The notes under the pieces are model-generated. The model was not told the DNA's origin. It was given only the letters and a program-made list of their open reading frames with translations, and searched no databases. Positions 36,946 through 63,894 of a stretch of DNA of 64,000 bases are shown piece by piece (the first letter of the stretch is position 1; every line of letters begins with the position of its first letter). The stretch is taken from IMG/VR virus record IMGVR_UViG_3300042568_000467, positions 27,439 through 91,438 of that record; one strand, 5' to 3'. The translations under genes were made by a program, and so were the position numbers. Source of the stretch: a virus.

Positions 36946-38529
36946 TTATTCGACTTGTCGTCCGTCGCCCTGAGTATTTCGGCCTTCTCCAGAAACATCT
37001 GGGGAATTTGCAGACCTTTCAGAATCTCTAGATCTGGTTTTTCCTGCCTGTGCTCTTGCCTCTGCCTGTTGCTGTGGCTTTAATTCAACAACTTTATCTC
37101 CGCCGTCAATAGGGACCAGACCCATTCTAATTCTTACCTCATTAGGGGTAATTACCTGCATCCTTAAATATCTCTCATCAATTTTTGACTGAGTATCTTC
37201 GTCGGTTAGAGTAAGCTCATTAAATTTAAGAAGTAAGGCATCTGTCATTTCTTCAATAATTTTATTTAATTTCTTTTCTAAATTCATTTGAGCTGGACGA
37301 CATACCTGCTCTCTGAATGTTTTGTCTGCATCTCTTGCGACTGCAAGGTTGACTCCTTCTGGAGTTCCAATTTTATTAATTGGGACACGATGAGATAATA
37401 GAATTTCGTCTCTATTAGATTTACGATATACGTTAAATGAAGACTCCTGAGTTCCAGCTTCAATTGGCTCCATCTTAAATTCAACCTTTGAGTCTGGTGA
37501 ATCTGGTGGAAGAGGAATGTATAAAGATCTATGATTTTTACCCCTTAGACCTACCTGGAAAAACTCGAGTAATTTACGCTCAGACTCTGTTGATAACTTA
37601 GCACCCTTTACGGTGATTATATATCTTGGAACCGCCTTGTTCTCAAAGTAGTCAAGGTTGTACTTTCCTGCAAACTCGTTTCCAGCCATAGCATTTGAAG
37701 ATGCCACGATATCTGGGATTCCATAGTAGTTATTTGTTGGCGTGTATTTCTTTAGATGAATAATTTCATTTGGTCTATCTAGTCCTCCTGCAATTGGGTT
37801 CTCTGTTTCTTGATCTCCAAAGTTGCGGAAGTATACTGCCTTACCGTATAACAACTGAATAAAGCCGTCACGAAGGCGACGAACACGCATTGTCTTTGCT
37901 GGGATATGTCCTATATATCCAATTCTTCCAGCAGAAGTTCTACCAATTTCTATATAACCATTTCCTGTTGCTTCAACATCAGTGTAGACTTTAATTAATG
38001 TTTCTGTAAATGTTTCTTCTTCGTTGCACTGCTCTAGCCAATCATATAAGTCTTGACGAAGTCTATTTAGCTTTCTACGTGCACGATCTAATGCTTTATC
38101 ATCTGTAATATTATCAAATGCTTCTTGAGTCTTACGTGTTTCAATAAAGTCGTGTCCAAGACCAACAATATTTGAAACCTTAGCGTTAATTGCTGAATAG
38201 TTGTATGGAGAAATTTCATAAATAGTTGAAAGGTAATCTAAGTTGTATGGTGGCTCTATAAGATCGAACATGGCGTAGCCAGTAATTGCTTGTGCCAATA
38301 AATTTTGTTGTGTTTCAGTTCCTTCAATACCTTGAAATCTTTTTTGTAATTCCCTACTCATCTTTCGACGGAATGCAGGACTTAAACCCGATATCTTTGT
38401 GAGGTCTTCTCCGCTTACCTTAAATAGGTCTGTGCTTGTTTGCTCTCTTGGAGTATTAAACTTCATCCAGTCGGCAACATTAGATATAGCGATCTCTTGT
38501 GAATCATTGTCTTCTTCGTATTGAATCAT
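36946..38529 (-). CDS. portal protein
   Basis: TGNGYIEI, NEIIHLK, YYGIPD, YFENKAVP, HRVP, ITPNEVR. Confidence 0.93.
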   Translation of the reverse strand: MIQYEEDNDSQEIAISNVADWMKFNTPREQTSTDLFKVSGEDLTKISGLSPAFRRKMSRELQKRFQGIEGTETQQNLLAQAITGYAMFDLIEPPYNLDYLSTIYEISPYNYSAINAKVSNIVGLGHDFIETRKTQEAFDNITDDKALDRARRKLNRLRQDLYDWLEQCNEEETFTETLIKVYTDVEATGNGYIEIGRTSAGRIGYIGHIPAKTMRVRRLRDGFIQLLYGKAVYFRNFGDQETENPIAGGLDRPNEIIHLKKYTPTNNYYGIPDIVASSNAMAGNEFAGKYNLDYFENKAVPRYIITVKGAKLSTESERKLLEFFQVGLRGKNHRSLYIPLPPDSPDSKVEFKMEPIEAGTQESSFNVYRKSNRDEILLSHRVPINKIGTPEGVNLAVARDADKTFREQVCRPAQMNLEKKLNKIIEEMTDALLLKFNELTLTDEDTQSKIDERYLRMQVITPNEVRIRMGLVPIDGGDKVVELKPQQQAEARAQAGKTRSRDSERSANSPDVSGEGRNTQGDGRQVE

Positions 38530-38873
38530 TACTGTCCCTCTGCCCTTAAATTTTTAATTTCGTCTTTATAGTTTCCAATATCCAAAGGATCAGGAACTAG
38601 TCCCCACTTAAGTCTTTGCTCTTGTTCTGCGTATTCTTCATCTGTAATTTTGCGTCTTGCTGAAAGAAATTTAGGCCCGCCTTCATATATACCGAATGTG
38701 CGAACTTCTCTAGCCAAAGCATCGATTCTGGATCTATTGCCTTTTTTCGACGTGATCGAAAGATAATTCCCATCTTCGTCTCCAATCCATCTGCCGTCTG
38801 GCATTTCCCAAACATATATGCCTAGCGTTGACTCTTCCTGCAGAATCTTTGTATTTGCTTTACTAATATCCAT
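38529..38873 (-). CDS. hypothetical protein
   Basis: stop overlaps portal start; leaderless promoter upstream. Confidence 0.7.
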   Translation of the reverse strand: MDISKANTKILQEESTLGIYVWEMPDGRWIGDEDGNYLSITSKKGNRSRIDALAREVRTFGIYEGGPKFLSARRKITDEEYAEQEQRLKWGLVPDPLDIGNYKDEIKNLRAEGQ

Positions 38874-38936
38874 AGAAGTTTATTTTACCATTCTTTATGG
38901 CCTAAGTCCAGCTTTTTGTCAAGGCAGATGACAAAA

Positions 38937-40691
38937 TTATATGCTTTGTAGAACGACCCAGTCATTATTATAATACTTTGTGGCTAATTCTGTCATGGTT
39001 ATGGCATTTTCTGTAATTGATTCCACAGGCTTTCCGCAATAAAGCTCGAAGTGGGTTTCAATTTTTGATGCTGTTAACTCAGAGTTGTAGGTAGCAATAT
39101 TCTTATAAAGGTTGCTTGGCCCTCCCGACCCCGACATAAGCTCATAATTAAATCTTAATTCTGCAGTTACTGGATCAGTAAATACGATTACAATGTGATG
39201 TGGCTCTTCTTCAACTAAATAGGAACTAATGTTTGTTTGATTAGTTACATCTACATTGTTTACATATATCTTGGCTATATTGGCCTTAGAAACCACTCCA
39301 GAGCCGTTCCAGGCTAGTCTGGTAGTAGAAGGGTTGTAGGCATACAAAAGGGTGTTAGCGGCCAACGTAAGGGGCGTAAAGAACATCTCTATAGACTTCA
39401 CAGAAGTAGATGAATTTAAACTAAATCCTGATCCACTTTTAGCCCTAATTCCATTCATATAATGTCTTGATAAAATTGGGTAATTCAAGGAGCCTAAGTA
39501 ATAATCAGTTGAAGAGGTTATTTTATCCCCAAAATTATCTGCATATATTGTTCTATCAGCATAAAATGTTATACAAAAGAATGATAGTTTTGGTAGATAT
39601 TTGCTTGCATCTGTAGTAGACATTGTAATTCTAATGTATACGTTACCGCTAGAGTTAAATGAATCTTTAGTATATTGTGGCAATGGCTGTCCATTTACAC
39701 ACTGAGAATATGCAATTCCATCTACACTAGACTCTACTGTAATTCCTAGATCATTCCGCCATTCAATTTTTGAAGTAGTTAAGCCTATTTGTGAAGGAAC
39801 GAAAAAGTAATCATTTATGATAAAGGTTTTGGCTTCGACTGTATCTGTTTTATAAAAAGAAATGTATCTGTTATTTGAATCGTAGTATGTGTTTTCATCT
39901 ACAAAATCTGACCACGCCTTGCTTGCTGGATATGAGTAGTCCATTACAGCTTTAATGTTTGCATCTGTTCCAGTGAATAATATTCCTTTATCTGGATAAA
40001 CAACATTAATTGCGGAAGTAGAAATATTTCCATCTACATAATGCTTTCTTATAGAATCAGGCTGTAGTCCATATCTGTATACAGCTGGAGCATCTATAAT
40101 AAATGTATCTCCGACAACTGATGTTGGGCCTACCTGTAATCCTAGTGTTGTGTTTGTAAATTTAAAATTAGATAAAGCTTTGGAGTCAACGGCAAATGAA
40201 TCTATATATAGGGTAATAGCTCCTACTGAGTAAACTCCGACAAGGTGTATGGACTTCTTACTGTATGTAACGCAGTATCTAATTGATTCTGTGTCTGATA
40301 CCTTAAATAATATATCTCCATTTTCCCAGAATAAACCTATGTCATTTGTTGGGTCTGCAAATATTGGTGTCTCTGAAGAAGATTCAATTGATGGGTGTAT
40401 CCATGCCTCTATTGTAAAATCATTATCTGAAGTATATTTTGTTCCAAAGCCCGCTCCGACAGTTGCTCCATAATAATCTTTTGTAACAGGTAAAGTTATA
40501 TATGCTGTATTTGTAATGCGGGTTCCAGAAACTCCACCAGAAACTAAGGGAAGTATATTTGATACAGGAGATCCTACATAGGTAGCATTATTTCCACATC
40601 CAGAAATATCTGTAGCGGTTGTACCAGAAGACTCATCCAGGGGCCAGAAGCCTATTGGGTAGTCCTTGATAACCTTCATCTGATATGTCAT
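38937..40691 (-). CDS. LamG/concanavalin-like virion protein
   Basis: PIGFWPLDESSGTTATDISG, FTIEAWI, HLVGVY...LYID. Confidence 0.75.
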   Translation of the reverse strand: MTYQMKVIKDYPIGFWPLDESSGTTATDISGCGNNATYVGSPVSNILPLVSGGVSGTRITNTAYITLPVTKDYYGATVGAGFGTKYTSDNDFTIEAWIHPSIESSSETPIFADPTNDIGLFWENGDILFKVSDTESIRYCVTYSKKSIHLVGVYSVGAITLYIDSFAVDSKALSNFKFTNTTLGLQVGPTSVVGDTFIIDAPAVYRYGLQPDSIRKHYVDGNISTSAINVVYPDKGILFTGTDANIKAVMDYSYPASKAWSDFVDENTYYDSNNRYISFYKTDTVEAKTFIINDYFFVPSQIGLTTSKIEWRNDLGITVESSVDGIAYSQCVNGQPLPQYTKDSFNSSGNVYIRITMSTTDASKYLPKLSFFCITFYADRTIYADNFGDKITSSTDYYLGSLNYPILSRHYMNGIRAKSGSGFSLNSSTSVKSIEMFFTPLTLAANTLLYAYNPSTTRLAWNGSGVVSKANIAKIYVNNVDVTNQTNISSYLVEEEPHHIVIVFTDPVTAELRFNYELMSGSGGPSNLYKNIATYNSELTASKIETHFELYCGKPVESITENAITMTELATKYYNNDWVVLQSI

Positions 40692-40712: not shown

Positions 40713-41309
40713 TTACCTTTTATAAAAGAATATGGGAATTAGATATTTGTTCCCAGAGGTTGTTTCTGCAGGTTCATGAAATGTGTCCTTTGACTCAAAA
40801 ACAACAACGCTTCCAGCTTCTGGCTTAATGGATATATTGAAATCTGGAAAGTTTATCTCTCCGCCTTCATAGTCGTCATTTAAATAGACAACCATTGAAA
40901 CCGTTAGTGGATCTTGGTCATCATCATATGAGTCTATGTGGGATCCCATATATGCGCCAACATCATACTTCTTAATAAAAAAGGTTGTGGGCAAATATCC
41001 TGGCTCAATACCTGTATCTTTGCAAAAAGACTCTTCGATATTTATAACTTTGTAAGCTAACATAGAGCAAAGCTTTGAGTTTATTTTATCTCCGACTGTT
41101 TGATTTTTAAAATTGTTAAGTCGACATTCCTTTTGTTTACCAAAAACATCATTGGTTCCAGAAGAAGATCTCCACTCTTGCCATGGACCTATTTGTGGAA
41201 CATAAGATGGATCTAGATCAGACTCCTCTAGTTCTTTTAAAAATAGACCTGGATCCTCAATAACATTTCTGTAGTAATGCACCTTAGGATGAAGAACTTC
41301 TTTAATCAT
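40713..41309 (-). CDS. 2OG-Fe(II) oxygenase, prolyl 4-hydroxylase-like
   Basis: KY..G.YMGSHID, VVYLNDDYEGGEI.F, KPEAGS, FHEP, GNKY. Confidence 0.9.
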   Translation of the reverse strand: MIKEVLHPKVHYYRNVIEDPGLFLKELEESDLDPSYVPQIGPWQEWRSSSGTNDVFGKQKECRLNNFKNQTVGDKINSKLCSMLAYKVINIEESFCKDTGIEPGYLPTTFFIKKYDVGAYMGSHIDSYDDDQDPLTVSMVVYLNDDYEGGEINFPDFNISIKPEAGSVVVFESKDTFHEPAETTSGNKYLIPIFFYKR

Positions 41310-42009
41310 ATTTTGCCTTATATTGTAAAGGAGTTCCTTCTTCTTTAGCCTTAGCCCATTCCTTGTAAGTTTCTTCTTGCTCGGCTCTTGTTTGCTTCAA
41401 TTCAGCTTCCCACTCCGCTATTTGTTCTGGAGTGTATACAGCATCAGCATTATCCCAAAAAGATCCTACTGTATATCTTTCTGCATTCTTAACAGTTGAC
41501 ACTTCGTGCTCGTTGCCATAACCACCTTTAAAGAATGCTAGTCTTCCTGGCTTTGGTTTAATGACTATGTCATGATGCTTAAAGTTTAAATCTCCACCTT
41601 CAAAATTATCATTTAAATATAGGAATCCAGCATATTTACTTTTATAAAATGCAGAGGGAGTTCCATCTTCATGAGTATTGTCTGAATGAAAACTTGCAAA
41701 CGCACCGACTACCCACTTTTGTGCATGATAACTAACTTCAGATAGCTCTCTACCAAAACATTCTTCTCCAGCCTTTTTAATTTTTTCTTTCAGTTGTGAA
41801 AAATAATCTCTTGGTAAGCCAAATAACAATAGGTTGTCATCGTGTGGCCAATATCCCATTGCAAAAGATCCGTAGAATGAGATTTGATTCCATTCTAAAA
41901 ATCCTGCATTTACAATTCCATCCAGATATCCAATAATTGCACTACATTCTTCTGGTGTTATTAGATTATCTACAACAAAAACGTCATCCTTTAGCGTTAC
42001 AATTTCCAT
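41302..42009 (-). CDS. 2OG-Fe(II) oxygenase, prolyl 4-hydroxylase-like
   Basis: FHSD, LYLNDNFEGGDL, NEHEV, ERY. Confidence 0.9.
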   Translation of the reverse strand: MEIVTLKDDVFVVDNLITPEECSAIIGYLDGIVNAGFLEWNQISFYGSFAMGYWPHDDNLLLFGLPRDYFSQLKEKIKKAGEECFGRELSEVSYHAQKWVVGAFASFHSDNTHEDGTPSAFYKSKYAGFLYLNDNFEGGDLNFKHHDIVIKPKPGRLAFFKGGYGNEHEVSTVKNAERYTVGSFWDNADAVYTPEQIAEWEAELKQTRAEQEETYKEWAKAKEEGTPLQYKAKYD

Positions 42010-42865
42010 AGCCAGCTTCCTCTTCTCTTTCTAATGCCTCTAATGCATATTGTATATCTTGTTCAGACGGCATAACTCTTACGCCATCTTTAAAAACTAT
42101 ATTGCCTCCGTAAACATCTTCGGCCATTCTTCTTCTCTCCATTTGAGCCCACTTAACTGCTCCATACTTTGATTGATTAGCTAGCCACTCTTCAGACCCT
42201 TCGTATGGGTAAAACATAAAGTTTCTAATTAAATATTTATTTCCCTGGGTTGCTGTTCTCACTCCATGATAGTAAGGCTCTCCTGATGGGAATACCATAA
42301 TGTCCCCTGCTTCTGGTTTGTAGGCTGGAACAAACTCTCCGTCTACATAAAACTCAATTTCTCCACCTTCATAATCATCATTTATATAAACAGTACAAGT
42401 TATAAAAAATTGATTACCAGGCATATCTTTTTCTGTTTGCTTAAAATCAGTATGAAATTGCATAGTTAGATTATTTTTTAAAGTGTCTACATTTGTATGA
42501 TATTTACAAAATGATGAGGATCCTAACTCAGAATCTTTTGGAAGCTCTACATTATACTTTTCAATATAATGATCTAGTGCTACATTGTATGCGTCAAAAA
42601 CTGTTTCGGCAGCCCAGTATTCGTTATCAAATGTTTCATTTTTTCCAAGCTGGTCTTGGACAGCATCTTTATGCTTTGTACTTGAGTATAAGCCAAATGC
42701 ACTCCATTGATACCACGGATTAAAATAATGTTCTCCAGAGTCTTTATCTTCCTCCGTTAAACCTTCTGTTGATTTTATAATTTCAAAGATCTTTTTATGA
42801 TCTGGTAGCAACCCTTTGTATACTTCAATTTTAGGGTATAACGTTTTTGATACTATATCACTCAT
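41984..42865 (-). CDS. 2OG-Fe(II) oxygenase, prolyl 4-hydroxylase-like
   Basis: FHTD, VYINDDYEGGEI, YYHGV, GNKY. Confidence 0.9.
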   Translation of the reverse strand: MSDIVSKTLYPKIEVYKGLLPDHKKIFEIIKSTEGLTEEDKDSGEHYFNPWYQWSAFGLYSSTKHKDAVQDQLGKNETFDNEYWAAETVFDAYNVALDHYIEKYNVELPKDSELGSSSFCKYHTNVDTLKNNLTMQFHTDFKQTEKDMPGNQFFITCTVYINDDYEGGEIEFYVDGEFVPAYKPEAGDIMVFPSGEPYYHGVRTATQGNKYLIRNFMFYPYEGSEEWLANQSKYGAVKWAQMERRRMAEDVYGGNIVFKDGVRVMPSEQDIQYALEALEREEEAGYGNCNAKG

Positions 42866-43533
42866 TCTGAATCCTTATCTAACTTAGAGATTGTCCAAAA
42901 CCAAGGCGATGTGTATCTGGTACCTGCTGTAATTACATCGACACCATGAATATAATTCAAGTCTCCAGGGAAAAAATATGCTGCTTTTCTTTTAGGTCTT
43001 ATTGCTACATCCTGTTTTGGAAAATGCAGTCTTCCGCCTTCATAATCTTCGTTTAAATAAAATATTGTTCCAATGTCATACCACGGGAAGTTTCCAGGCT
43101 TTCCAGCATCTGGACCTTCATGTAACTCTTTATCTGCATGTGGCCACTGCATAGACCCTACTGGCCATCTGACCAAGCATGGTCCTGTTGGATAAACCTC
43201 TACATTAAAATGCTTTTCGATAACTGGCTTTAGCCTTTGGATAATCTGCTCTAGCATTACTGACACTTCGGGATTTCCTTTATCTAAAGAAGCTCTTGTG
43301 GCGACACGATCTCTCCATACGTCGTGCTGATAAATTACTGTTCCGTTTTCATTAACCACATCTTGTCCACCGTCCCAAATAGTGTTACCCTTTACATAAC
43401 TTAACAGAAATTCACACTCTTCTTCTGTAAGAAAGTTTTCCACCTCAACAATATTTTCTTTTCCTGCTCCAAAGTATCCTGAGGGTGTAATTGAGGTTCT
43501 ATGTGTTCTTAAATCAGATTCATTAACGTGCAT
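42862..43533 (-). CDS. 2OG-Fe(II) oxygenase, prolyl 4-hydroxylase-like
   Basis: PHAD, FYLNEDYEGGRL, YIHGV, GTRY. Confidence 0.9.
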   Translation of the reverse strand: MHVNESDLRTHRTSITPSGYFGAGKENIVEVENFLTEEECEFLLSYVKGNTIWDGGQDVVNENGTVIYQHDVWRDRVATRASLDKGNPEVSVMLEQIIQRLKPVIEKHFNVEVYPTGPCLVRWPVGSMQWPHADKELHEGPDAGKPGNFPWYDIGTIFYLNEDYEGGRLHFPKQDVAIRPKRKAAYFFPGDLNYIHGVDVITAGTRYTSPWFWTISKLDKDSE

Positions 43534-43550
43534 TTTTTCTACCTATCATC

Positions 43551-44279
43551 TTATTCATATTTCTTGGGGACCCAAGTTTTTTGTTTGTAAACTCCAAATT
43601 TTTCATTTCCAAGCTCGTCTTGCCTGTAAATTTTTGTATGAGCTTCATGCTTTTCAACCATTTCTTCTTGTGTAAAAAGGTTAACTTCAGACGTCCATTC
43701 TTCTCTTTTATAAGGAAAAATTTGAGCGTAAGGAGTTCCTTTTTTAATAATACCTTGAAAAGTATTCTTTATAAAAAATGGCATAAGTCCTGGTGGCCCA
43801 TACCTATCACTGTCAATTATACCGCTTGTAGTCAAAAAAGGCAGCTCAAAATGATTTATCGGATGTGTTATTAAAGCGCTATACCCCTCTGGCAAAGTAA
43901 ATCCCCAGTTTGGATACCAATGATATGACTGCTTATAGTATCCATCTGGATAATAAAACTCACCCATATGAGGTCTAGAGTCACAAAATCCTTCAAACCC
44001 CTTTTCTGGTTGAATATAAGTAACTTCATTATAGCTGGAAACAGCAACATCGCATGGAGTTGTTAACATATATCCAGATGAAAATACATCAAGTAGCGCT
44101 GGGCACGATTTAAATCCAGGGCCTTTTTTGTTTTTAGGTGGAAAATCTATAACCTTATTATCTTTGTCTGTCCAGTATTTACTGGCATTTAAAAACCAAT
44201 TTGGGGTTGTTTTTTTTGCAGGAGACGGAGCGGTGTCCTTGTTATTATAAACTCTATTTGAATTAAAAACAATTTTCAT
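43551..44279 (-). CDS. hypothetical protein, DUF6065-related phage family
   Basis: PNWF, FKSCPALLD..SSGY, GYSALITHP, SGIIDSD, IKKGTPYAQIFP; loosely parallels motifs of 44276..44992. Confidence 0.55.
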   Translation of the reverse strand: MKIVFNSNRVYNNKDTAPSPAKKTTPNWFLNASKYWTDKDNKVIDFPPKNKKGPGFKSCPALLDVFSSGYMLTTPCDVAVSSYNEVTYIQPEKGFEGFCDSRPHMGEFYYPDGYYKQSYHWYPNWGFTLPEGYSALITHPINHFELPFLTTSGIIDSDRYGPPGLMPFFIKNTFQGIIKKGTPYAQIFPYKREEWTSEVNLFTQEEMVEKHEAHTKIYRQDELGNEKFGVYKQKTWVPKKYE

Positions 44280-44992
44280 TTTGTTAAATCTTTAACTCCA
44301 AGCTTGATCGATTTAACTTCATGTTCCCCTAAATGGTTTCCCATGTAGTCTACAGCATCTCTATAGTAATCAGTCCATGTTCCTTCAGAATTTGCTTTTT
44401 CTGCTGCTTTCATGGCACCCTCCATTGTAAGCGGTATATCTCTTTTAATTAAAGGAGCATTTCTTTCTTCATCTAAATTAACTGTAGAATTATTTAAGTC
44501 TGTAAGAGATATTGGCATAATTGCAATAAATGGTTCATTCGCTTTTATTGTAATAGGGACAAAAGGTCTGGTAATTTTCCAGGCTACTGGTAGTGGGCCT
44601 TCAAAAAAAGATGTACTTAATATACTAGTAACCGCACTTGCCCCATCTGTAAAACTATTTGGAACTGGAAAGGAAAGAAGGCTATAGTTTTTATCAGTGA
44701 CAAAACGTAGGTTAGTTTTAAAATTAATTGTTGCGTGTCCCCTACCCGTTTCACAATATTTTTCTCCCTGAAGGACTTTAACGTTATCTGGATAAGTACT
44801 AGTAATTCCATCCCACATAAATGTTATATCTTCAGGGAAAGATAGCCCCCAGCCAACCTGGTTACTTAAAGTTAAAGGGAAACATCTATATGCATGCTTA
44901 TGGGTAGTTTCGTCCATCCAATTTCTTTTTGCAGAAAGTGGAACTATGTTTGCAGAAAAATCTGAAACTTTATAAGCATTTAAATTAATCAA
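44276..44992 (-). CDS. DUF6065-like protein
   Basis: RNWMD.T...AYRCFPL..SNQVGW, PVPN, WKITRP, EPFIAIMP. Confidence 0.7.
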   Translation of the reverse strand: MINLNAYKVSDFSANIVPLSAKRNWMDETTHKHAYRCFPLTLSNQVGWGLSFPEDITFMWDGITSTYPDNVKVLQGEKYCETGRGHATINFKTNLRFVTDKNYSLLSFPVPNSFTDGASAVTSILSTSFFEGPLPVAWKITRPFVPITIKANEPFIAIMPISLTDLNNSTVNLDEERNAPLIKRDIPLTMEGAMKAAEKANSEGTWTDYYRDAVDYMGNHLGEHEVKSIKLGVKDLTK

Positions 44993-45740
44993 CTGATTTC
45001 TCTTCCATTAATTGTTCTGCTGGCTTAAACTTTTTCCCTTCAGTAATATGATTATATTCATAGCTAGCTTCAATTTCTCTGTACAGTGGTGTATGTGGAG
45101 CCTCTTGATAATCTAGCATGGTTACAATTGCATATTTTGTTCCTGATGTTACTGGCATTGCAGCATGAGAATATATAAAGGAAGATGGGAAAAGATAAAG
45201 GTCTCCAGCTCTTGGCTTTACCTTAACGCCAAGCTTGTCAAAAAATAACTCTCCTCCTTCGTAATCGTCGTTTATGTATCCAACTGAAGATAAAACGCAA
45301 ACGTAGGAGTACCCGTGATCTGAGTGAACATTAAAGTGTTGATTTTTACCATACTTAATAAAATTAAAAGCTTCCCAATAATTCAATGGTGGAATTTGAA
45401 ACATATTCATGTAGTCATAAACTGCTGAAAGTTGAGCAGCCTTTGACTCTCTCCAAATACTGCGTAGCTCAAATTCTTCTTCTGTGAAGTCTTCTGGCTC
45501 GACGTGTGTTCCGTTACCAAGCATTAAGGATCCGCCTTGGTTTTCTTTAATCTTGAAATCCCAAGCATCTCTATAATCTTTATTTAGGGTGTCGTATCCA
45601 GTCTGAGCAAGGTTCCAGTGTTTCTTGCCTTGTGTTTTAGAAAGAACAGATTCTAGTCTAGTGTCTAAATTATATTCTTTTTTAAATACATCTCTATATA
45701 CAATAATTCCTGGATAAATTGTTTCTGCATTTGGTAGCAT
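44985..45740 (-). CDS. 2OG-Fe(II) oxygenase, prolyl 4-hydroxylase-like
   Basis: VHSDHG, GYINDDYEGGEL, YSHAAMPV.SGTKY. Confidence 0.9.
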   Translation of the reverse strand: MLPNAETIYPGIIVYRDVFKKEYNLDTRLESVLSKTQGKKHWNLAQTGYDTLNKDYRDAWDFKIKENQGGSLMLGNGTHVEPEDFTEEEFELRSIWRESKAAQLSAVYDYMNMFQIPPLNYWEAFNFIKYGKNQHFNVHSDHGYSYVCVLSSVGYINDDYEGGELFFDKLGVKVKPRAGDLYLFPSSFIYSHAAMPVTSGTKYAIVTMLDYQEAPHTPLYREIEASYEYNHITEGKKFKPAEQLMEEKSVD

Positions 45741-46367
45741 TTAATTTGACTCCTTCTTATGCTTTTTGTCAATATAGTCATCATATTCTTTTGAATGGGC
45801 ATCATCGTTATAGTCTAACATGGTGACAAAAGAATACTTGGTTCCAGAATTTACTGGAAGAGCTATGTGAGAATAAATAAATGAAGATGGAAATATAATT
45901 AAATCACCAGCTTTAGGCTCTATGTGTAAATCAAATTTAGGGAAAAACAATCCTCCGCCAGTATAGTTATCATTAGGATATCCTACCAAAGAAACGGCGG
46001 ATTTGTATGACCAACCGTCGTCTGAATGCTCCTTAAAATATTGTCCTTTTCCATACTTTACAACATTTGTCCATTCCCAAAAATCCATTCTAATACTATA
46101 CATTTCGCAGTAATCTAGCACGGCTTCTTTTTGACAATTATATATGTCATTATATATATCTATATATTCTGGTAAATTATACATCTTGAGATCTTGGCAA
46201 TCTCTATACTCTAGATCCTGATCTTCTAAGCATACGGTAGCTGTATTCCATTTTAAAACACCAGAATCTACCTTATCTTCAATTCTTTGAATTAAGTTTA
46301 AATCTTCTGGGAAAGAATTTGGGTATTTCCATATGCCAGGATATAGTTGTTGTTTATTATATATCAT
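45741..46367 (-). CDS. 2OG-Fe(II) oxygenase, prolyl 4-hydroxylase-like (close paralog of 44985..45740)
   Basis: EHSDDG, GYPNDNYTGG, FPSSFIYSHIALPV.SGTKY. Confidence 0.9.
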   Translation of the reverse strand: MIYNKQQLYPGIWKYPNSFPEDLNLIQRIEDKVDSGVLKWNTATVCLEDQDLEYRDCQDLKMYNLPEYIDIYNDIYNCQKEAVLDYCEMYSIRMDFWEWTNVVKYGKGQYFKEHSDDGWSYKSAVSLVGYPNDNYTGGGLFFPKFDLHIEPKAGDLIIFPSSFIYSHIALPVNSGTKYSFVTMLDYNDDAHSKEYDDYIDKKHKKESN

Positions 46368-46373
46368 AAATAC

Positions 46374-46402
46374 ATAATATCATATTTAAAAAACCTAGTC
46401 AA
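46374..46402 (-). promoter_or_regulatory. leaderless promoter for oxygenase cluster
   Basis: TTGACT(46397-46402)-17-TATTAT(46374-46379)-6 nt-ATG(46367); extended TGn. Confidence 0.65.
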
Positions 46403-47954
46403 TAGTATCTTGTAGGGTTTTACATCCGTTGTAGGCTAGCATTGACTCTGCAATTAATAGCCCCCAAGGTTCTCTATAAATCAAATACACCTTGGTGTCC
46501 TTTTTAACAATTTCAACCTTTTCAACATCTATAAATTCTAATTCATTGTCTTTATAGGATACAATTTGATCGCCTTGTTTTAATTTAGAGCTTGTAATAA
46601 ATTTGTATTTATTTGCTCTTTTTATTAAAATCTGTTCTTGTGTTGATAAATCATACTTTTCTTCATCATTTATTCTAACAATTGAAGCGTAGTCTTGTTC
46701 ATTAATATCAAAGACTGTTGACTCAATGTAAGAAACATTTTCTAAAGAATCAGAGTTCCATGCATCTACAAGAGATATGCATTTCTTTGAAACTGAACCA
46801 ATAGTACAGTTTGGATCACCTTCTGGAATTTCGTCAAAGACTGCAGTTATAAGAATGTCGCCATTAACAATTTCTTTAGCTTTCTTATATCCGTCTTTTG
46901 TTAAGACGTTAGTGTTTTCTGGAATACAAAATCCTGGAGGACCAAAGAATCTAGGTGGCGAGAAGAATCCTGGAGGACCAAAAAATGTTGGTGGAGCAAA
47001 GAATCTCGGTGGGCTGAAGAACAGCGGCGGGCTGAAGAATCTAGGTGGGGTAAAGAACAGCGGTGGCACAAAGAATCTTGGCGGGGTGAAGAACAGCGGC
47101 GGGCTGAAAAACAGCGGTGGGCTAAAGAATAGTGGTGGCACGAAGAACAGCGGCGGGCTGAAAAACAGCGGCGGGCTGAAAAACAGCGGCGGGCTGAAGA
47201 ATAGTGGTGGGCTGAAAAATAGTGGTGGGGCAAAGAACAGCGGTGGGGCGAAAAATAGTGGTGGTGCAAAGAATCCTGGAGGAGAGAAGAATGTTGTAAC
47301 CTGATTAGATGTTGTTGGTGTTGAGTTTCCGTTTGCATTTACGGCAACTACGGTATAAGACTGGGTTGTTCCCATTGTTTCTCTGATATTAATTGTTGTT
47401 GCTGGTGGATTTCCAACAACCTCATATGGAGATGCTAATCCTCCTGGTTGAGCAGAGCTGTCTGAAGAAGTAATTATATACTTAGTTAAAGGCTTGCCTC
47501 CAGAAGTTGAAGCAGACCATGAAACAGTGTCTTGTCCTCTTAAATCGGTTGTGCTATGTCCTGGACCAGTTGTATTAGATGTTGAAGTTACTGTTGCTGG
47601 AGCAGCTGGAACTGTAGTAAATGTAACAGAAGATGAAGCAGCTGATGCTTCTGACTGACCATTAGCATTTGTTGCTTTTACTGTAGCTGTACCAACAGCT
47701 CCTTGAGGAATACCAATAACCGTAATAGGCGAAGATGTTCCAATTTCTGAAAATGATCCTTGTGCGCCACAATTTACAACAACTGTATAGCTTATAATTG
47801 GTAACTGATCTGGTGGATAATCAAAAGATACTACTGCTGCTGCATTATTAAATGGGCGATTCGTTCCAACATCTGTTAGAGTTACATTGATAGGTGGTAC
47901 TGGTAATTCAAAATCACCAGATAATTGAGCTCTTCTACCAACTTTTTTTGCCAT
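46395..47954 (-). CDS. FN3x2 - (FFxPPy)20 repeat - C-terminal Hint (intein-like) domain protein
   Basis: Two FN3-like units; 20 tandem hexapeptides; then CIPENTNVLTKDGYKKAKEIVNGD (Hint block A) ... VYLIYREPWGLLIAESMLAYN (blocks F/G). Confidence 0.85.
   Translation of the reverse strand: MAKKVGRRAQLSGDFELPVPPINVTLTDVGTNRPFNNAAAVVSFDYPPDQLPIISYTVVVNCGAQGSFSEIGTSSPITVIGIPQGAVGTATVKATNANGQSEASAASSSVTFTTVPAAPATVTSTSNTTGPGHSTTDLRGQDTVSWSASTSGGKPLTKYIITSSDSSAQPGGLASPYEVVGNPPATTINIRETMGTTQSYTVVAVNANGNSTPTTSNQVTTFFSPPGFFAPPLFFAPPLFFAPPLFFSPPLFFSPPLFFSPPLFFSPPLFFVPPLFFSPPLFFSPPLFFTPPRFFVPPLFFTPPRFFSPPLFFSPPRFFAPPTFFGPPGFFSPPRFFGPPGFCIPENTNVLTKDGYKKAKEIVNGDILITAVFDEIPEGDPNCTIGSVSKKCISLVDAWNSDSLENVSYIESTVFDINEQDYASIVRINDEEKYDLSTQEQILIKRANKYKFITSSKLKQGDQIVSYKDNELEFIDVEKVEIVKKDTKVYLIYREPWGLLIAESMLAYNGCKTLQDTID
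46932..47291 (-). repeat. 20 x 18-bp coding tandem repeat (FFxPPy)
   Basis: Units FFSPPG, FFAPPL, FFSPPL, FFVPPL, FFTPPR, FFSPPR, FFAPPT, FFGPPG; synonymous variation between copies. Confidence 0.97.
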
Positions 47955-47968: not shown

Positions 47969-48469
47969 TTAAGCTGTTAAATCACCGAATAGAAGCCATG
48001 TGTTGGCGTCACGCTTTAAAATTGTTGCCATTGACCATTGAAATCTTAATTTTCTACCTGGAGTAAAGTTTAAAGTTACACCAGTAGCGGCTACAACGGT
48101 AGTTTGGCCTGTTCCAGATTGCAAAATATCTATGGTTGTTCCAATTGGAAAGTCTACAACAGAATCAAGAGGTATCGTAAAGTTATTTGCAACCTGCATT
48201 CTGATGTCAATAATTGTGTCTCTTTCATCTAAACTGCTAAGGGTATATGGAAAATATTTAGTGCTAATTCTTGTTAAAGAAGGCACTGCTATTTTATCCT
48301 GAACACCATCTTGAAATCTTACTGTACCGCCTGAAAGATCAAGGGTTCCCTTTAGCTGGATATTTCCAGCTAAAGTTGTTTCCCCCTGAAATCCAGCACG
48401 TTTATTTACAGATAGCGAGTTGACCTGAAGGTCTTCGTCGGTGTTAAACTTACCCTTGTTGAGAGCCAT
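47969..48469 (-). CDS. virion accessory protein (fibre C-terminal-type domain)
   Basis: FPIGTTIDILQSGTGQTTVVAATGVTLN...TWLLFGDL. Confidence 0.6.
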   Translation of the reverse strand: MALNKGKFNTDEDLQVNSLSVNKRAGFQGETTLAGNIQLKGTLDLSGGTVRFQDGVQDKIAVPSLTRISTKYFPYTLSSLDERDTIIDIRMQVANNFTIPLDSVVDFPIGTTIDILQSGTGQTTVVAATGVTLNFTPGRKLRFQWSMATILKRDANTWLLFGDLTA

Positions 48470-48478: not shown

Positions 48479-51400
48479 TTATGCCTGAGCCTCTGTCCAA
48501 GATAGTCGTCCGAACACTGATGCTGTTGATGAACCAATGTTCTGTACAACAATAGTTAGAACGTCTGGACCATCTGGATAGATGTTGGCGTTAGCAGCTG
48601 ATCCGCCACCGCCGAGGATTGAGTTACCAAGATCTCTAACTCCCGATAGGTCGATTGAGTTTGCTCCAGATCCTACGAAGAATCCTGCTGTAACTTCACC
48701 ACCAGCTACTGTAACGTTACCAGCAGATTGATAATCTGCAATCTGAGACAGTGAGGAGTTAGCAACGTTTGCAGCGTTACCGACTGCGTTTGTCCAAGTT
48801 GTTGAAGCCGAAGGTACACCATTAAGTATCGCTGTTACCAAAAGATTGGCGTTAGATGTTGAGGTTGTAACGTCAAGTGCTCTTAGCGTCAGCTGCATTC
48901 TATTAATAAGTTCTCTTGCACCAAATGTTGATGCGATACCGTTATCTACAGAAGGTGCTACACGAATTGAAAACAGTGCTCTTGATTGCCCTGCTGCAAT
49001 TGCGGTTGAACTTCTCTGTCCATATGTAAAGACGAGAGATTTATCATCATCATATCTTCCGTCCATAATAACTGAGGTACCCCAGTGTGATATGGATGCT
49101 GAGAATGATGGATACGCTAGCTCTACCATTGTTGGAGCAACTGCGTCAAATGTAAACAATTGCGCTGATGTAGCTCCCATTGGCGCTGCGATTACTCCTG
49201 TTGGGTTTGCATCAAGTGCTGCCTTGCTTGTTTTAATTGTATTTCCATTGATAGCTGCAATAAATGTACCTTCTGGATATAAATCGTTAATAAGTCTCAT
49301 TCCAACTTGTAGGTTGGCTGAGCTAGAAACTGTTCCTATAGAAGAACCAGATGCCTGAGTGATATTGATAGAGGCTTCTCCAGCTTTTCCTCTTGTAAGA
49401 CCAGTAAATGATGTAGCAGATTTTCCAGAATAGTTTACATACTCAACATTAGTGTTGTCTTTAATTGCTAAAGTACCAGTTGGAGGGAAACCTGCTGTTG
49501 ATCTTACTGCTAACGCCAAATCTGTGGTCAAAACAGTTTGTGTGGTTGCTGTATATGGAGGTGTTGTTGAAGACTCGTAGCGAGCTGGAAGGTTTCCGCT
49601 TCGCATATAGGCTTCTGTATTTACGTTATTGTTTGGCATCTTGTGGCAATAAATAACGTCACCCTTCGGACCTCTTACACCCCAACGTACGAAACCAGCT
49701 CCATACCAAGTATAGTCAATATAAAACATCTGCATCTTTGAAAGATCGATATTGTATTGAGATGGTCCTGTTCCATCTAGCTTATCAATATTAAATGATG
49801 ACTGTGGAATTTTTGTTTCTTGAGTTTTTGAAATTATTGCAAATTGAGTAGTAGCACCACGATAAGCAGGGCTAATAGTCATAGATGTATCATTTTGAAT
49901 TGCAATAACTTTGTAAGACTGTCCTCTAATTACAATATAATCTCCTGGGATTAATTGCTTAGAGAAAAATGTTGGGAAGTAAGCACTTGACTGTGTGATG
50001 GTTGCTCCACCAAAGTTAGCATTTACTTTTCCAGATAGCTGGAATGTAGAGTTTCTGCGAACTGCATTTAGTGTAGTTCCATCGTACTCCCAGTATAGAC
50101 CGTTTTGATTATCAAACATTCCAAGTCTATTTTGGCATCCATACCATGACTCTACAGAAGCAAAAAAGTCTCCTGTTGCAATTGAAGATGAAGGTATAGA
50201 CAGTGCGTTATACTGGAACTTATCATCAGAAATTACGCTTTGAATTTCAAATGTTCCGTTGTATTCTGTCTGAGTACATCCGCCAATCTTAATCATAGTT
50301 CCTGGCTGTAAATTGTGCTTTTCTTTTGTTTGAACTGTTACAACAACTGTACCGTTGCTTTGGATATTTTCAATTCCTGCATAAGGCTTTAGAATTGTAC
50401 CAGAAGAAGCCTGTAGGCCCTTACCAGATTGATATCTAAAGTAACGTCGAGTTTGACGAATACATGATGCATAATTTGAACCAGCATTTGTTCCAAAGAT
50501 AACTCCGCCGTCATTTGGTCTATGTGCAAACTGTGATTGTGGTCTTACATAAATTATTGCTCCACCGCCAACAGTTCCTGTTGGGGCTACTGCGTGATAG
50601 TAAGAAAATGTTTGTGGGCCAGTAATTTGAGCAACCTCTTGATTACCATTTGGAGGGTTAGTTGTTGCTGTTGCACCAATTACTACAATTTCATTACCTA
50701 TCGCAAGTCCGTGAGGAATTGTTGTTGTTACGGTAATTTTTCTTCCGCTATATGTAAATGAAGGGCTTCCGCCAATTGCTGATCCAGTAAAGACATCTCC
50801 TTGAACAACAAGTGTCTTATTTGGATCTAGAATTGCTTCAATTCCACTTCGGTTTACAGCATTTGCTGTATAGCTAAATGTTGATCCTCCGCCACCTGAC
50901 TCAATAATAAAGTTACCATTTGCAGCTGTTAGATAAGTGTCAACTACGGTAATTGAAGTTCCGTTTGCTGGGGCAACACCAGAGCTAAGTGTTATTGAAA
51001 CTGTTTTTGAGTTATTAGGAAAGCTAATTGCAGAAATGTTTGGGATTGGAGTTGGGCGAGCATAAGAATATGGTCTGTTGTTATAAAGTCCCAAGTTTTC
51101 CCATTTTGTTTGCTGAATACCATACTCAAAGTCGGTATCAATTAGAGCCTGTGGCTGAGTGACACGAAGCTTATTTGTTGTGTCTAACAAAACCTCTGCT
51201 GGCATAAATGTTTCTGAATGGTCATCAATTGTAATCTGAAGTTTATCAGTAGAACTCATTGATGCTGTATTGTATTCTAGAACAAGCGTAGTGTTTTCCA
51301 CCATTGCTGAGCTTGTGCTTGTATTGTATGAAGTGCATCCCAAGCTAGGATCTGAAAAATTATAAATAACCTGATTGGTTGTTACGTTTGTAATCAACAA

Positions 51401-51493
51401 CAATCTTTCACGAAGAATTGTCTTCGGAATTGAAATTGTCTTTGTTGAAGGTGTAAATGTGTAGTGTGTTTCTAGAATTACTTTTCTTGCCAT
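48479..51493 (-). CDS. large virion structural protein
   Basis: YTFTPSTKTI...LLLITNVT N-terminus; repeated T..PHGL..G..I.V.G beta modules. Confidence 0.65.
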   Translation of the reverse strand: MARKVILETHYTFTPSTKTISIPKTILRERLLLITNVTTNQVIYNFSDPSLGCTSYNTSTSSAMVENTTLVLEYNTASMSSTDKLQITIDDHSETFMPAEVLLDTTNKLRVTQPQALIDTDFEYGIQQTKWENLGLYNNRPYSYARPTPIPNISAISFPNNSKTVSITLSSGVAPANGTSITVVDTYLTAANGNFIIESGGGGSTFSYTANAVNRSGIEAILDPNKTLVVQGDVFTGSAIGGSPSFTYSGRKITVTTTIPHGLAIGNEIVVIGATATTNPPNGNQEVAQITGPQTFSYYHAVAPTGTVGGGAIIYVRPQSQFAHRPNDGGVIFGTNAGSNYASCIRQTRRYFRYQSGKGLQASSGTILKPYAGIENIQSNGTVVVTVQTKEKHNLQPGTMIKIGGCTQTEYNGTFEIQSVISDDKFQYNALSIPSSSIATGDFFASVESWYGCQNRLGMFDNQNGLYWEYDGTTLNAVRRNSTFQLSGKVNANFGGATITQSSAYFPTFFSKQLIPGDYIVIRGQSYKVIAIQNDTSMTISPAYRGATTQFAIISKTQETKIPQSSFNIDKLDGTGPSQYNIDLSKMQMFYIDYTWYGAGFVRWGVRGPKGDVIYCHKMPNNNVNTEAYMRSGNLPARYESSTTPPYTATTQTVLTTDLALAVRSTAGFPPTGTLAIKDNTNVEYVNYSGKSATSFTGLTRGKAGEASINITQASGSSIGTVSSSANLQVGMRLINDLYPEGTFIAAINGNTIKTSKAALDANPTGVIAAPMGATSAQLFTFDAVAPTMVELAYPSFSASISHWGTSVIMDGRYDDDKSLVFTYGQRSSTAIAAGQSRALFSIRVAPSVDNGIASTFGARELINRMQLTLRALDVTTSTSNANLLVTAILNGVPSASTTWTNAVGNAANVANSSLSQIADYQSAGNVTVAGGEVTAGFFVGSGANSIDLSGVRDLGNSILGGGGSAANANIYPDGPDVLTIVVQNIGSSTASVFGRLSWTEAQA

Positions 51494-51496
51494 ATT

Positions 51497-54400
51497 CTAA
51501 TCTCCTAATTGTATATCCACTGCTCTAAATGGATAAATTGATTTTTTAGCTGATTGACTCTCTGGACCCGACATGTATCTTGCCTCAAATTTAGATCCTA
51601 CTGGAACGGGTTCGCCGAACTGTACAAATCCATCATTATCGAAGAAATATCCATCGGATGGAATCAAACTTAGCCAATGTTTTTCTTGGTTTCCCAATAT
51701 CTGTAGTATACCATTAATCGTTATCAAAAGCTTGTAAGGATTTTGTGGTATAAATACCTCTCCGTCATATGTTAGCTGGAATCTTGACTCAGATCCGTCA
51801 AAATAGACGGAAATGTCGTCCAGCGGATATATATCGGATCCAACTGATGAGGCAATTTGGTTTGCCAAATATGCCTTATTTACTGCATGCTCGTCATCTA
51901 TAGGCGCTGCTACAGATATTGGAGTGTTTCCAAAATCAACCCCGTTAATAATAACACTGTTTAATGTTTTATTTGTAAGAGTTGTTGTATTTGTTTCAGT
52001 GACTATTTTGTTAGATGCATTTACATCTAGCCCTAGTCCTGGAATTCTAAAGCTTGTTATTGAAGAGTTTCCTAATACAATTTGATTACTTGTATTTACA
52101 GCAGTAGTTGCTGCGTTATATCCAATAACAATGTTATTTGATCCAGTAGTAATTGCAGCTCCAGCCAATGTTCCAAGCGCAACGTTTTGATTTCCGAGCA
52201 ACAATTGTCCCGCAGCACCAGATCCAACAGCTACGTTATCTGAACCTTCTTGAACTGCACTTAATGCATCTAGTCCTAGCGCAGAGTTATTAGCACCCGA
52301 AGTTAGGTTTCCTAATACAAACTCTCCGACACCAGTATTATTATTAAATGTATCAACTACACCATATACTAAACCAGGAAGGTCTGGAGTTGCGCTTGGT
52401 ATTTGATAAGTGCTTCCAAGAGCTACTGTGGTATCGGTTAGACCTATTGACATAATAATGCTTGAATTTGTCAACTTATTATTTGCAATAGATCCTGCAA
52501 GCATTGCATTTGTAACTGTATTATTTGGAAGTATTACAGTTCCTGTAAATGTAGGTGACGCAAGATTTGCCTTTAAATTAAGAGCTGTCTGCTGTGCTGT
52601 TGAAACTGGTTTGTTAGCATCTGAAGTATTATCAACGTTAGACAAACCTACGTCAGATTTTGTAATTCCAGTTGGGGTATTAATAACTGGAGACGTTAAA
52701 GTTTTATTTGTCAGAGTTTGAGCTGTGTTTAAATCTACAGTTGTTCCTGTATTAATACTAAAAGTATTTCCAGTAAGGCTTAAGCCATTTCCAGCTAAAT
52801 ATGTACCAGCTCCTGAAAATTGAGTAAATGTTATTGGGTCTGTCCCAATTGTAACAACACTCGTTGATGTTTGAACCCAGCCTGTATTGTCATTAACTGT
52901 ACCACCAGTGACAAAGATGAAGTCTCCGCCATCAACCTCTGATGGGGAATCAAAGTCTGTGGCACGAGACATCATTGCGCCATCATTTATAACATAAATA
53001 CCATTTTCGCTAGGTGTGTTTTGATTCTTTACTAAAATACGATTTCCTGCAGCTAAAGTAACACCATCAATTACATCTCCAACAGAAGTTGCAAACGATA
53101 TGTTTCCTGTAGTAGCTGCTACCGCAGACGGGTGTATGTGTAACCCTTCTGTTACCGAATCTACATAAGCTTTAGTTGCTGCATCTGTAGAAGCCGTTGG
53201 TGTTCCAAGATTTGTTATTTTGTATGTTGCTAAAGTTACATCACCAGTTGGTGCCCCAACAGAATTTAATGAAAATTCTGAAGGATCTACAGAAATTGCT
53301 CCTGTAGTATCATCATAGTCAAGACCGTTACCGACTACGGTTCCGATAGCATCCTGAGCTCTTTCATCTGTAAAATAAAGCGCTGTTCCTTCTGCAATGT
53401 CTGAAGTGGTAAGGGCATCAGCGTGAGCTATTGCATTTGTTTGTGCTGCAGAAGCTGCTCCAAATGCGTCGTATGTGTTTGGAGTTACAGAAATTGCTCC
53501 AGTTGTATCGTTATAAGAAAGACCTGTTCCAACTGCATTTCCTACTGCGTCTTGAGCATTTTCATCTGTATATGTTACTGCTCCAGTTAAAGAAATTGAA
53601 TTTGCTACATCATCATAAGATACTGAAATATTTGTGTGTGTGCCAGCTGCTAAAGCGGCTGCTACAGCATCTTGTGCTCTGTCATCTGTAAAGTATTTAT
53701 TTGTACCACCTTCAGCCAAGGCATCTGTTGTAGAGTCCGCCACTCCATTTTCAGCAGTAATAGTAAGTCCGTTTTTATCTCCTGTAATTGATATATTAGA
53801 CTTTGTAGCATTTGTAAGTAGTTCTGCTGCAAATGCTTTGGTTGCCAATTCTGCTGTGTCTGCAATACCATGAATATTGGTTGTATCAGATTCGTGGGTA
53901 GATAAGTCAGTTGATGACGCCTTACTGTTTAATTGTGTTTGTATAGAAGATGTTACACCGTCTACATAATTAAGTTCTGTTGTAGATAGTGTTGCACCGT
54001 CAAGGATGTTTAACTCTGTAGAGCTTGCTGTTAAAGCCACATCCTCATTAATTTTAGGGGAATTTAAAGTTTTGTTTGTAACGGTTTGTGTTCCATCTGT
54101 TGTAAGAAGTTTAGATGTATCTGCAATACCGTGAATATTTGTTGTATCTGCCTCGTGGTTAGTTAAATTTGTTGCAACTGTTGTAAAGAATGTTGGATCG
54201 TCATTAACTGCAGCTGCTAATTCATTTAATGTGTCTAGTAGGCCAGGTGCCCCGTCTACTAAATTGCTGACAGCGGTTGAAATATCTGATGTTAATGCTA
54301 CTGTTCCAGAACTATTTGGAAGAGTAATTGTTCTATTTGCAGTTGGCTCTGTAGCAGTTAATGTTGTTGTATAGTCGTGAGCCTGATCGTTCCATAAAAT

Positions 54401-55094: not shown

Positions 55095-55097
55095 CTG

Positions 55098-63813: not shown

Positions 63814-63818
63814 TTAAG

Positions 63819-63890: not shown

Positions 63891-63894
63891 TTAG

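Follow-up and report, generated by a model that had tools for sequence, protein, structure and literature searches.

What a phage might do with six prolyl-hydroxylase-like enzymes is the question raised by a compact group of genes in a 64,000-nucleotide stretch of viral DNA (IMG/VR record IMGVR_UViG_3300042568_000467, positions 27,439 to 91,438), which is called the window here. At positions 40713-47954 of the window, a gene for a repeat protein, designated R, is followed by genes for six 2-oxoglutarate (2OG)-Fe(II) oxygenases and two DUF6065 proteins. These eight genes are referred to as the battery, and R and the battery together as the cassette. Few auxiliary genes are commoner in aquatic phages than those of 2OG-Fe(II) oxygenases, and we know of no substrate for any phage member of the group. 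The repeat protein offers a candidate. Sequence comparison suggests that the oxygenases, which resemble prolyl 4-hydroxylases (P4Hs), hydroxylate the Pro/Phe tail of the co-encoded R and that R is matured by self-removal of its C-terminal Hint domain; we give this reading about an even chance.

The repeat protein and the neighbouring enzymes

The R gene (46395-47954, minus strand) is an open reading frame (ORF) of 519 amino acids. Residues 1-221 (47292-47954) comprise a conserved N-terminal peptide and two FN3-like domains, and residues 222-341 (46932-47291) form the repeat tract that is the proposed hydroxylation substrate. A Hint-fold domain of the BIL/Hedgehog-like kind, 167 residues long, extends from Cys343, its first residue, to Asn509 (46428-46928) and is followed by a non-conserved tail of 10 residues and the stop codon (46395-46427). 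The tract consists of exactly 20 FFxPPy units, with 40 Phe and 40 Pro, and one further Phe precedes Cys343. The Pfam fn3 family (PF00041) scores below its 25-bit cut-off on R (18.5 bits, E 0.0024) and is found in 28 of 33 R homologues in precomputed annotation. A preliminary description of the sequence had proposed this layout, and apart from the sub-threshold fn3 score it is borne out by the ORF, codon, profile and fold evidence.

At the F, F, P and P codons of the tract, 414 of 760 pairwise comparisons differ, and every difference is synonymous. Therefore, the tract is under protein-level selection and does not result from recent slippage. R peaks at 14 Pro per 40 residues, while every other ORF of the 91-kb contig stays at 7 or fewer, and it is the sole proline-rich product of the contig. 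Glycine does not recur at every third residue as in collagen; it is confined to position x or y of five units. An antisense ORF (46777-47304, plus strand, 175 residues, GGxKNx units) was rejected as a by-product of the repeat. It is open because it is the reverse complement of the FFxPPy codons, and the real frame is that of the minus strand, since it encodes the FN3-like and Hint domains.

Single-sequence searches with the C-terminal domain gave weak matches only. A family profile searched against the PDB matched inteins and a BIL domain at E 1e-4, and an AlphaFold2 model of the domain was obtained with a predicted local distance difference test score (pLDDT) of 87. The top Foldseek matches were Tetrahymena BIL2, the Hedgehog autoprocessing domain, inteins and a C. 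thermocellum BIL domain (E 6e-7 to 2e-5), and the whole match list holds BIL2, Hedgehog-C and more than 30 inteins at E 6e-7 to 1e-3. Judged from the model, the C-terminal domain of R is a Hint fold. Its nucleophile position, Cys343, is Cys in at least 90% of the homologues and Ser in a few. The block B motif, T/SxxH, reads SxxE in this phage and its close relatives, while SxxH or TxxH is retained in more distant members. At its C-terminal end the domain reads YN, with the penultimate His replaced, and Gly comes next. An intein, and with it protein splicing, was rejected on the grounds of this end and of the mere 10 non-conserved residues behind the domain.

Among the variants of R, a stop codon, a Hint domain or a Peptidase_S74 (S74) domain starts 0-5 residues from the end of the tract, and Hint-less relatives stop at the predicted Hint cut position. 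By any of the three devices the mature protein would apparently end with the tract, which suggests self-removal as the role of the Hint domain. The S74 domain is a self-removing C-terminal domain that serves as an intramolecular chaperone of trimeric phage fibres. By analogy, the S74 variant may mean that the tract belongs to a trimeric fibre or itself trimerises.

The battery begins 27 nt behind R, and its eight genes overlap by 4-26 nt or are separated by gaps of 0-21 nt. All of them lie on the minus strand. In the order of transcription they encode Oxy1 (208 residues, 45741-46367; PF13640, E 6.8e-11, with HxD...H and K-Y), Oxy2 (251 residues, 44985-45740; PF13640, E 1.5e-12), DUF6065a (238 residues, 44276-44992; PF19541, E 1.7e-32, with a conserved Cys-(Phe)-Pro motif), its divergent paralogue DUF6065b (242 residues, 43551-44279; phrog_7084, E 3e-34, 20% identity to DUF6065a), Oxy3 (223 residues, 42862-43533; phrog_61, E 3e-15, triad intact), Oxy4 (293 residues, 41984-42865; PF13640, E 2.6e-9), Oxy5 (235 residues, 41302-42009; PF13640, E 3.2e-10) and Oxy6 (198 residues, 40713-41309; PF13640, E 1.4e-11). 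The composition given in the preliminary description, six oxygenases with intact HxD...H motifs and two DUF6065-type proteins, is thereby confirmed.

Five of the six oxygenases match PF13640 at 38-49 bits (cut-off 27), and Oxy3 falls just below at 25.3 bits. The iron triad and the basic residue are kept in all six (H114, D116, H167 and K/R-Y178 in Oxy1 numbering), as is a YxN[DE]xYxGG motif. A joint profile of Oxy1-6 matched only protein hydroxylases in the PDB: B. anthracis P4H (1.4e-11), P3H1, PBCV-1 P4H (4.6e-8), PiuC, LH3 and PHD2. By profile and motif, Oxy1-6 are P4H-like 2OG-Fe(II) oxygenases, for which proline hydroxylation is predicted. Outside the window, a second minus-strand group (L337, G000:C1:12564-17478) encodes a 361-residue PF13640 oxygenase, a luciferase-like monooxygenase and a 933-residue PA14-domain protein that holds a short Gly-x-x run; two more PF13640 genes are located at C1:2771-4001. 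Homologues of the luciferase-like monooxygenase sit within the battery of two related loci, L008 and L154.

DUF6065a matches PF19541 at 113 bits (cut-off 26.6). DUF6065b has no Pfam match and is linked to the family through phrog_7084 and through an alignment with DUF6065a (A3), in which P39, G47, D55, N112, P154 and P160 are conserved columns. Relatives of DUF6065b occur in haloarchaeal tailed viruses. The AlphaFold2 model of DUF6065a (pLDDT 82) gave dUTPase matches in Foldseek at E 1.8e-4. VIA-align reached a Z score of 10.6, and the 14 chains with Z of at least 8 were all dUTPases or dUTPase-like viral proteins. Profile scans found no sequence-level match of the DUF6065 proteins to a dUTPase family; as modelled, DUF6065a has a dUTPase fold. 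Wherever gene maps were examined, the first DUF6065 gene is immediately preceded by one for an Oxy1- or Oxy2-like oxygenase. A prediction of an Oxy2-DUF6065a complex from alignments scored 0.00, which counts neither for nor against such a complex. No paper on DUF6065 was found in a full-text literature search.

Joint distribution of the repeat and the battery

The association of R with the battery was followed in four samples: loci found with R, loci found with DUF6065 (the best 80 of more than 520), a homology-free DNA pattern, and relatives found through their portal protein (the best 80 of more than 575). In phage and metagenome contigs, tract proteins almost always stand beside oxygenase or DUF6065 genes, which is the co-occurrence that the preliminary description had put forward as a check. 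Among the loci found with R, the battery lies directly behind it in 15 of 15, down to 30% identity. Starting from DUF6065, a Pro/Phe-tract protein was found immediately upstream in 56 of 76 new loci. Judged by their gene maps, the remaining loci seem truncated close to the battery, and in one a frameshift falls within the R tract. At L119:1253-2377, a +1 shift within the R tract makes FFxPPL read as HHCSL-type units, owing to an assembly error or slippage.

The pattern FFxPPxFFxPPxFF, sought at the DNA level in IMG/VR, yielded 81 unique tract ORFs. Where at least 2.5 kb of downstream sequence was present, an oxygenase or DUF6065 gene followed within four genes in 51 of 58 cases; the other seven are either cut or encode a second tract protein, 5-9 genes ahead of a further R and battery. 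The same pattern was scanned across 185,579 species genomes and gave mostly single chance matches, with two true arrays, both beside enzymes. The tract is essentially phage-specific. One array of this cellular set, L353 (JBBALJ010000003.1), is on a 78-kb contig of a 'Bacteroidia' metagenome-assembled genome and belongs to a 30-unit repeat-Hint gene. Fibre-type genes, the repeat-Hint gene and oxygenases follow each other there in the order of this phage, and L353 is probably a misbinned phage contig. Against 50,697 GenBank phage records, no match was obtained by megablast of the block, by tblastn of R, or for DUF6065a. No cultured relative in that set carries the cassette.

Unique relatives with a portal identity of at least 75% and at least 9 kb of upstream sequence numbered 29. 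Of these, 18 lack both R and the battery, 7 carry both, and 4 carry the battery but have an R region that is cut off or unresolved; R by itself was seen in none. The portal tree, built from 72 sequences, implies at least 11 changes of state for the battery, and in all eight independent contrasts R moved in step with it (sign test, p 0.008). The cassette is missing as a whole from a relative that shares 96% portal identity with this phage. In cassette-free relatives, the whole stretch upstream of the LamG gene has been exchanged for other genes. These comparisons support a joint gain and loss of R and the battery across related phages.

The pairing spans at least six protein architectures of the tract. 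FN3-FN3-tract-Hint accounts for 40 of the 81 tract ORFs, and in 29 a stop codon follows 0-5 residues behind the tract. A short non-FN3 form of R has 122-150 residues and a Thr/Ala-rich N-terminus. In fibre proteins of about 800 residues, the tract is the C-terminal end. In L170:1069-1380 and L193:2989-3396 the tract continues into 10-50 Cys-rich residues with many spacings of the CxxC kind, and in L154 it leads directly into the Peptidase_S74 fibre chaperone (E 6.5e-10). Some relatives have a 60-residue ORF that is nearly all tract. The short form of R occurs on contig fragments rated 10-16% complete by CheckV. One of these fragments carries a tail-sheath-like gene (phrog_279, E 9e-9), and in BLAST comparison its only overlap with this phage consists of the fibre-C domain, R and the enzymes.

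The cassettes themselves vary, with 3-9 oxygenases, 1-4 DUF6065 genes, reshuffled order and inserted extra genes; in the L208 type, one oxygenase is on the opposite strand. A PF11397 GlcNAc (N-acetylglucosamine)-transferase-like gene stands directly behind R in two loci, and in L154 (4.8e-20) it lies between R and the oxygenases. PF11397 is the family of the Skp1 hydroxyproline GlcNAc-transferase. No PF11397 gene was found in the genome of this phage itself. A PF03567 sulfotransferase together with a PF05118 Asp/Asn beta-hydroxylase-like protein is encoded directly behind R in 28 loci. Hydroxylated proteins are known or conceivable targets of such accessory enzymes. Some cassettes also include an SDR or a luciferase-like monooxygenase.

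The P4H/DUF6065 battery is absent from loci whose R homologue has a Pro-poor FSPFxVFG tract, with 7 Pro in 55 residues. At these loci (L018-L033; e.g. L022:10001-12580), two paralogous genes for His-rich proteins of 221 and 214 residues with HxDH...HPH motifs follow the R homologue, and many of the genomes carry two repeat-Hint genes. The 221/214-residue proteins had no match in Pfam, NCBIfam or a profile search against the PDB, and hhalign against two PF13759 proteins was blank. The ESM Atlas groups them with PF13759 clusters (0.96), an assignment that hhalign and the profiles did not confirm.

Candidate substrate and competing explanations

The repeat is the most likely substrate because of its co-distribution with the enzymes, the pairing across architectures, the accessory enzymes and the contrast with the Pro-poor homologues. 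The preliminary description had taken the repeat to be the substrate; adjacency at each informative locus, joint gain and loss, and the standing of R as the only Pro-rich protein now tie it to the enzymes, and the chemistry is inferred. On this reading, an actinophage would carry, in the fibre region that serves host recognition, a mobile cassette for making a hydroxylated aromatic-proline appendage. The six P4H-like 2OG/Fe(II) oxygenases would hydroxylate the 120-residue tail of R, mainly at prolines and possibly at other side chains, and the two dUTPase-fold DUF6065 proteins would be their non-oxygenase partners. The Hint domain would remove itself by an N-to-S acyl shift at Phe342-Cys343, leaving mature R to end at the tract, and its thioester would be hydrolysed or handed to another nucleophile. 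In sister cassettes, the new hydroxyls would probably be decorated by GlcNAc transfer or sulfation. The product may be an extended extensin- or collagen-like stalk or an adhesive tail on the fibre apparatus of the virion. A virion-displayed, modified tract was one of two products suggested in the preliminary description, and it agrees with the P4H-like profile, the accessory genes after R and the fibre and S74 fusions, which lend it support.

Several points weigh against hydroxylation of the tract of R. In the Hint domain of this phage, neither the His of block B (SxxE) nor the penultimate one (YN) is kept, and cleavage is therefore not assured. The proposed virion location of R is drawn entirely from gene position and domain type. 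There is no explanation of why a six-residue motif should need six conserved, distinct oxygenases. R adjoins the battery, and one recombination event moves both; their joint inheritance therefore partly reflects linkage. A locus whose portal is 84% identical, L270:2045-6846, has three DUF6065b-like genes and other genes upstream of the LamG gene. L270 has no P4H-type oxygenase and no R. Besides L270, the haloviruses and the cyanophage Syn9, whose gp43 belongs to a dioxygenase array, have DUF6065 relatives without a Pro/Phe repeat. The preliminary description had held that frequent separation of repeat and enzymes would speak against it: a PP-type R alone was not seen in the samples compared, and part of the battery does occur without the repeat, as Syn9 gp43 illustrates. 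The Syn9 array lies behind fibre genes, and no Pro/aromatic repeat was found in gp32-gp61, which indicates that the repeat is younger and less widespread than the oxygenase-DUF6065 pairing. Within PP-type cassettes, more Pro does not mean more oxygenases (15 Pro and 9 oxygenases in L011, 58 Pro and 5 oxygenases in L055); a difference appears only between PP-type and FSPF-type tracts. Finally, three further PF13640 genes lie elsewhere in the genome, away from R.

The Syn9 array, the lack of scaling and the three distant PF13640 genes also fit an explanation in which the oxygenases and DUF6065 proteins act elsewhere, on other fibre proteins, on host proteins such as translation factors or on a small molecule, and R is a mere neighbour. 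The SDR or luciferase-like monooxygenase of some cassettes would suit small-molecule chemistry. However, the enzymes track the tract over at least six R architectures and two backbones, and they track no single fibre gene except the fibre-C domain. Among the cassette genes scanned, Pfam named no nonribosomal peptide synthetase, polyketide synthase, ATP-grasp protein or halogenase. The closest solved relatives of the oxygenases are all protein hydroxylases, and the battery is missing from the Pro-poor R homologues. We consider a target other than R unlikely.

The tract could instead be structural and unmodified, serving as a rigid, hydrophobic spacer of the polyproline-II type or as a sticky tail, and be paired with the enzymes through linkage in a fibre cassette recombining as a block. 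Co-transfer is the default for adjacent genes, the exchange of the whole stretch upstream of LamG in cassette-free relatives is in keeping with it, and purifying selection on F, F, P and P can be explained without modification. Nevertheless, the cassettes are reshuffled, yet R-alone recombinants number zero among the 58 tract ORFs and the 29 portal-seeded relatives, and predicted hydroxyproline-directed accessory enzymes stand directly behind R. An unmodified tract seems to us quite improbable.

The second product suggested in the preliminary description, a ribosomally synthesised and post-translationally modified peptide whose multi-core precursor would be hydroxylated and cut into small linear or cyclic Phe/Pro peptides of antamanide-like composition, with the Hint thioester serving release or cyclisation, has near-identical repeated cores, short R forms (the 60-residue ORF and the 122-150-residue proteins), Cys-rich tails on some tracts and adjoining tailoring enzymes in its favour, and is nevertheless very improbable, since Pfam named no protease, cyclase or macrocyclase, leader-recognition element, exporter or other transporter among the genes scanned in the window cassette and seven related loci, the fusions of the tract to FN3, to fibre proteins of about 800 residues and to Peptidase_S74 are hallmarks of virion fibres, the cassette belongs to a late structural run with no strong internal terminator-like site, and a Hint domain yields one thioester per protein and not per core.

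Hydroxylation of the R tract can be extended to a bolder proposal, which we regard as speculative and rather unlikely in its entirety. The cassette would then make a new biopolymer, a hydroxylated (FFxPPy)n fibre tip for adsorption that would resemble collagen, extensin or mussel glue, on which several hydroxylases would act residue by residue and to which some phages would add sugar or sulfate. Beyond release, the Hint domain would ligate the tail covalently to another virion molecule or to a molecule of the host surface, by analogy with BIL in Tetrahymena BUBL, and DUF6065 would represent a new class of hydroxylase partner.

The cassette supplies a concrete and cheaply testable candidate substrate, a 120-residue repeat that can be obtained as a peptide, together with natural controls in the Pro-poor homologues, the cassette-free relatives and the Hint, S74 and stop-codon variants. 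If hydroxylation of R holds true, this would be the first case known to us of a phage hydroxylating a protein of its own fibre region. It would also provide a function for DUF6065 and for Syn9-type arrays, and a Hint-released hydroxylated Pro/Phe polymer would join the materials of viral host recognition.

Genomic setting and known systems

The window makes up the right-hand 64 kb of an IMG/VR viral contig that is 91.4 kb long and has an estimated completeness of 85%, and nearly all genes are on the minus strand. The contig encodes a WhiB protein, its portal protein is 58-60% identical to those of Streptomyces phages of 127-131 kb such as BillNye (family Stanwilliamsviridae), and the GC content is 35-42%. 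From these features, we infer a siphovirus-type phage of a low-GC actinobacterium. Along transcription, a class II ribonucleotide reductase gene is followed by a terminator-like hairpin, fibre-like genes, R and the eight enzyme-type genes, and then by genes for the LamG protein, p114, the portal, a protease, the capsid protein and tail proteins. The placement between fibre genes and LamG/portal genes noted in the preliminary description agrees with this gene map. The hairpin (57383-57354, minus strand, 13-bp stem) precedes the fibre block and is the sole strong minus-strand site. The terminator scan gave no strong site inside the cassette, which lies within the late structural gene run, and a promoter scan showed no enrichment over shuffled sequence.

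The fibre-like block (48479-56513) includes p471, p141, p1066 (with an Mtd_N domain) and p1004, and is continued by p166 (47969-48469, minus strand), a 166-residue fibre-type protein whose residues 49-166 match PHROG tail and virion families. Its C-terminal domain of about 110 residues forms the end of the gene directly upstream of R in the related loci compared; that gene encodes 166 residues in some loci and about 1,100 in others, and the contig with the tail-sheath-like gene shows the same arrangement. The BLAST matches of p166 are the gene just upstream of R in L001-L015, L119, L154, L168, L191, L208, L234 and G001. This constant position suggests that the p166-type C-terminal domain may be a partner or an anchor of R. 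Behind the cassette, the LamG, p114 and portal genes occupy 36946-40691. The LamG-domain protein (584 residues, 38937-40691, minus strand; PF13385) marks the downstream boundary of the cassette, and its gene is kept also in cassette-free relatives. A GT4-type glycosyltransferase gene (59728-60711, minus strand) adjoins the ribonucleotide reductase gene. The same pair is found in Streptomyces phage BillNye; therefore, it is a backbone gene and not a member of the cassette. Genes for tRNA-Arg(TCT) and tRNA-Met(CAT) (63818-63968, minus strand) are located near the contig end.

Each part of the cassette can be compared with a known system. The Hedgehog/Hog and BIL Hint domains (BUBL BIL2, PDB 6tmm and 6y75) are the best structural matches of the R Hint domain and share its C-terminal position, with Cys directly behind the cargo. 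In contrast, the domain of this phage has SxxE and YN and no sterol-recognition region, and its cleavage or ligation is only predicted. The endosialidase-type Peptidase_S74 chaperone takes a similar place in L154, where it begins with 'SDLRDK' right behind the '...PPGFK' of the tract, but it is absent from the window. For the modification of a new hydroxyl, the Skp1 pathway of Dictyostelium and Toxoplasma provides a parallel, in which P4H1 acts first and the Gnt1 GlcNAc-transferase (PF11397) then acts on the hydroxyproline. A P4H-type enzyme followed by a PF11397-family transferase recalls the gene order of L154, whereas the target in the Skp1 pathway is a single proline of a cytoplasmic eukaryotic protein.

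Bacterial operons of dioxygenases and sulfotransferases have been predicted to modify co-encoded collagen-like or tail-collar proteins (Iyer et al. 2010, PMC2938197). Their logic, in which a co-encoded repeat or fibre protein is hydroxylated and the hydroxyl is then decorated, resembles that of the 28 related loci. They differ in being cellular and in having Gly-X-Y or tail-collar substrates, and the activities are predictions there as they are here. The same study reported that cyanophage Syn9 has ten dioxygenases in a tandem array along with a dUTPase-fold protein, and its authors proposed secondary-metabolite synthesis for this array (PMC2938197). The preliminary description knew of no described phage system with the present architecture. 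In the searchable literature this holds, as the papers found on phage proteins with hydroxyproline and on Hint domains in phage fibres describe no such system, but the Syn9 array is a published precedent for part of it. Both phages have many 2OG oxygenases directly behind tail-fibre genes, and Syn9 gp43 is a relative of DUF6065 (hidden Markov model E 1.3e-16; hhalign 93.5%). The Syn9 enzymes, however, belong mostly to PF13759, DUF6445 and JmjC (the last according to PMC2938197) and are accompanied by two tryptophan halogenases.

The P4H of PBCV-1 (A085R, PDB 5c5t) is likewise a virus-encoded P4H-type oxygenase with Pro-rich tandem repeats as its likely substrate. Eriksson et al. reportedly linked this enzyme in 1999 to the proline-rich repeats of the virus itself. 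PBCV-1, a virus of eukaryotes, has one such enzyme, to which its (PAPK)n-type repeats are not adjacent. In the present phage, six paralogues and dUTPase-fold partners are coupled to an FFxPPy tract with a Hint domain, by which release is predicted. The system thus combines two known kinds, the viral P4H with Pro-rich repeats and the dioxygenase array of phages.

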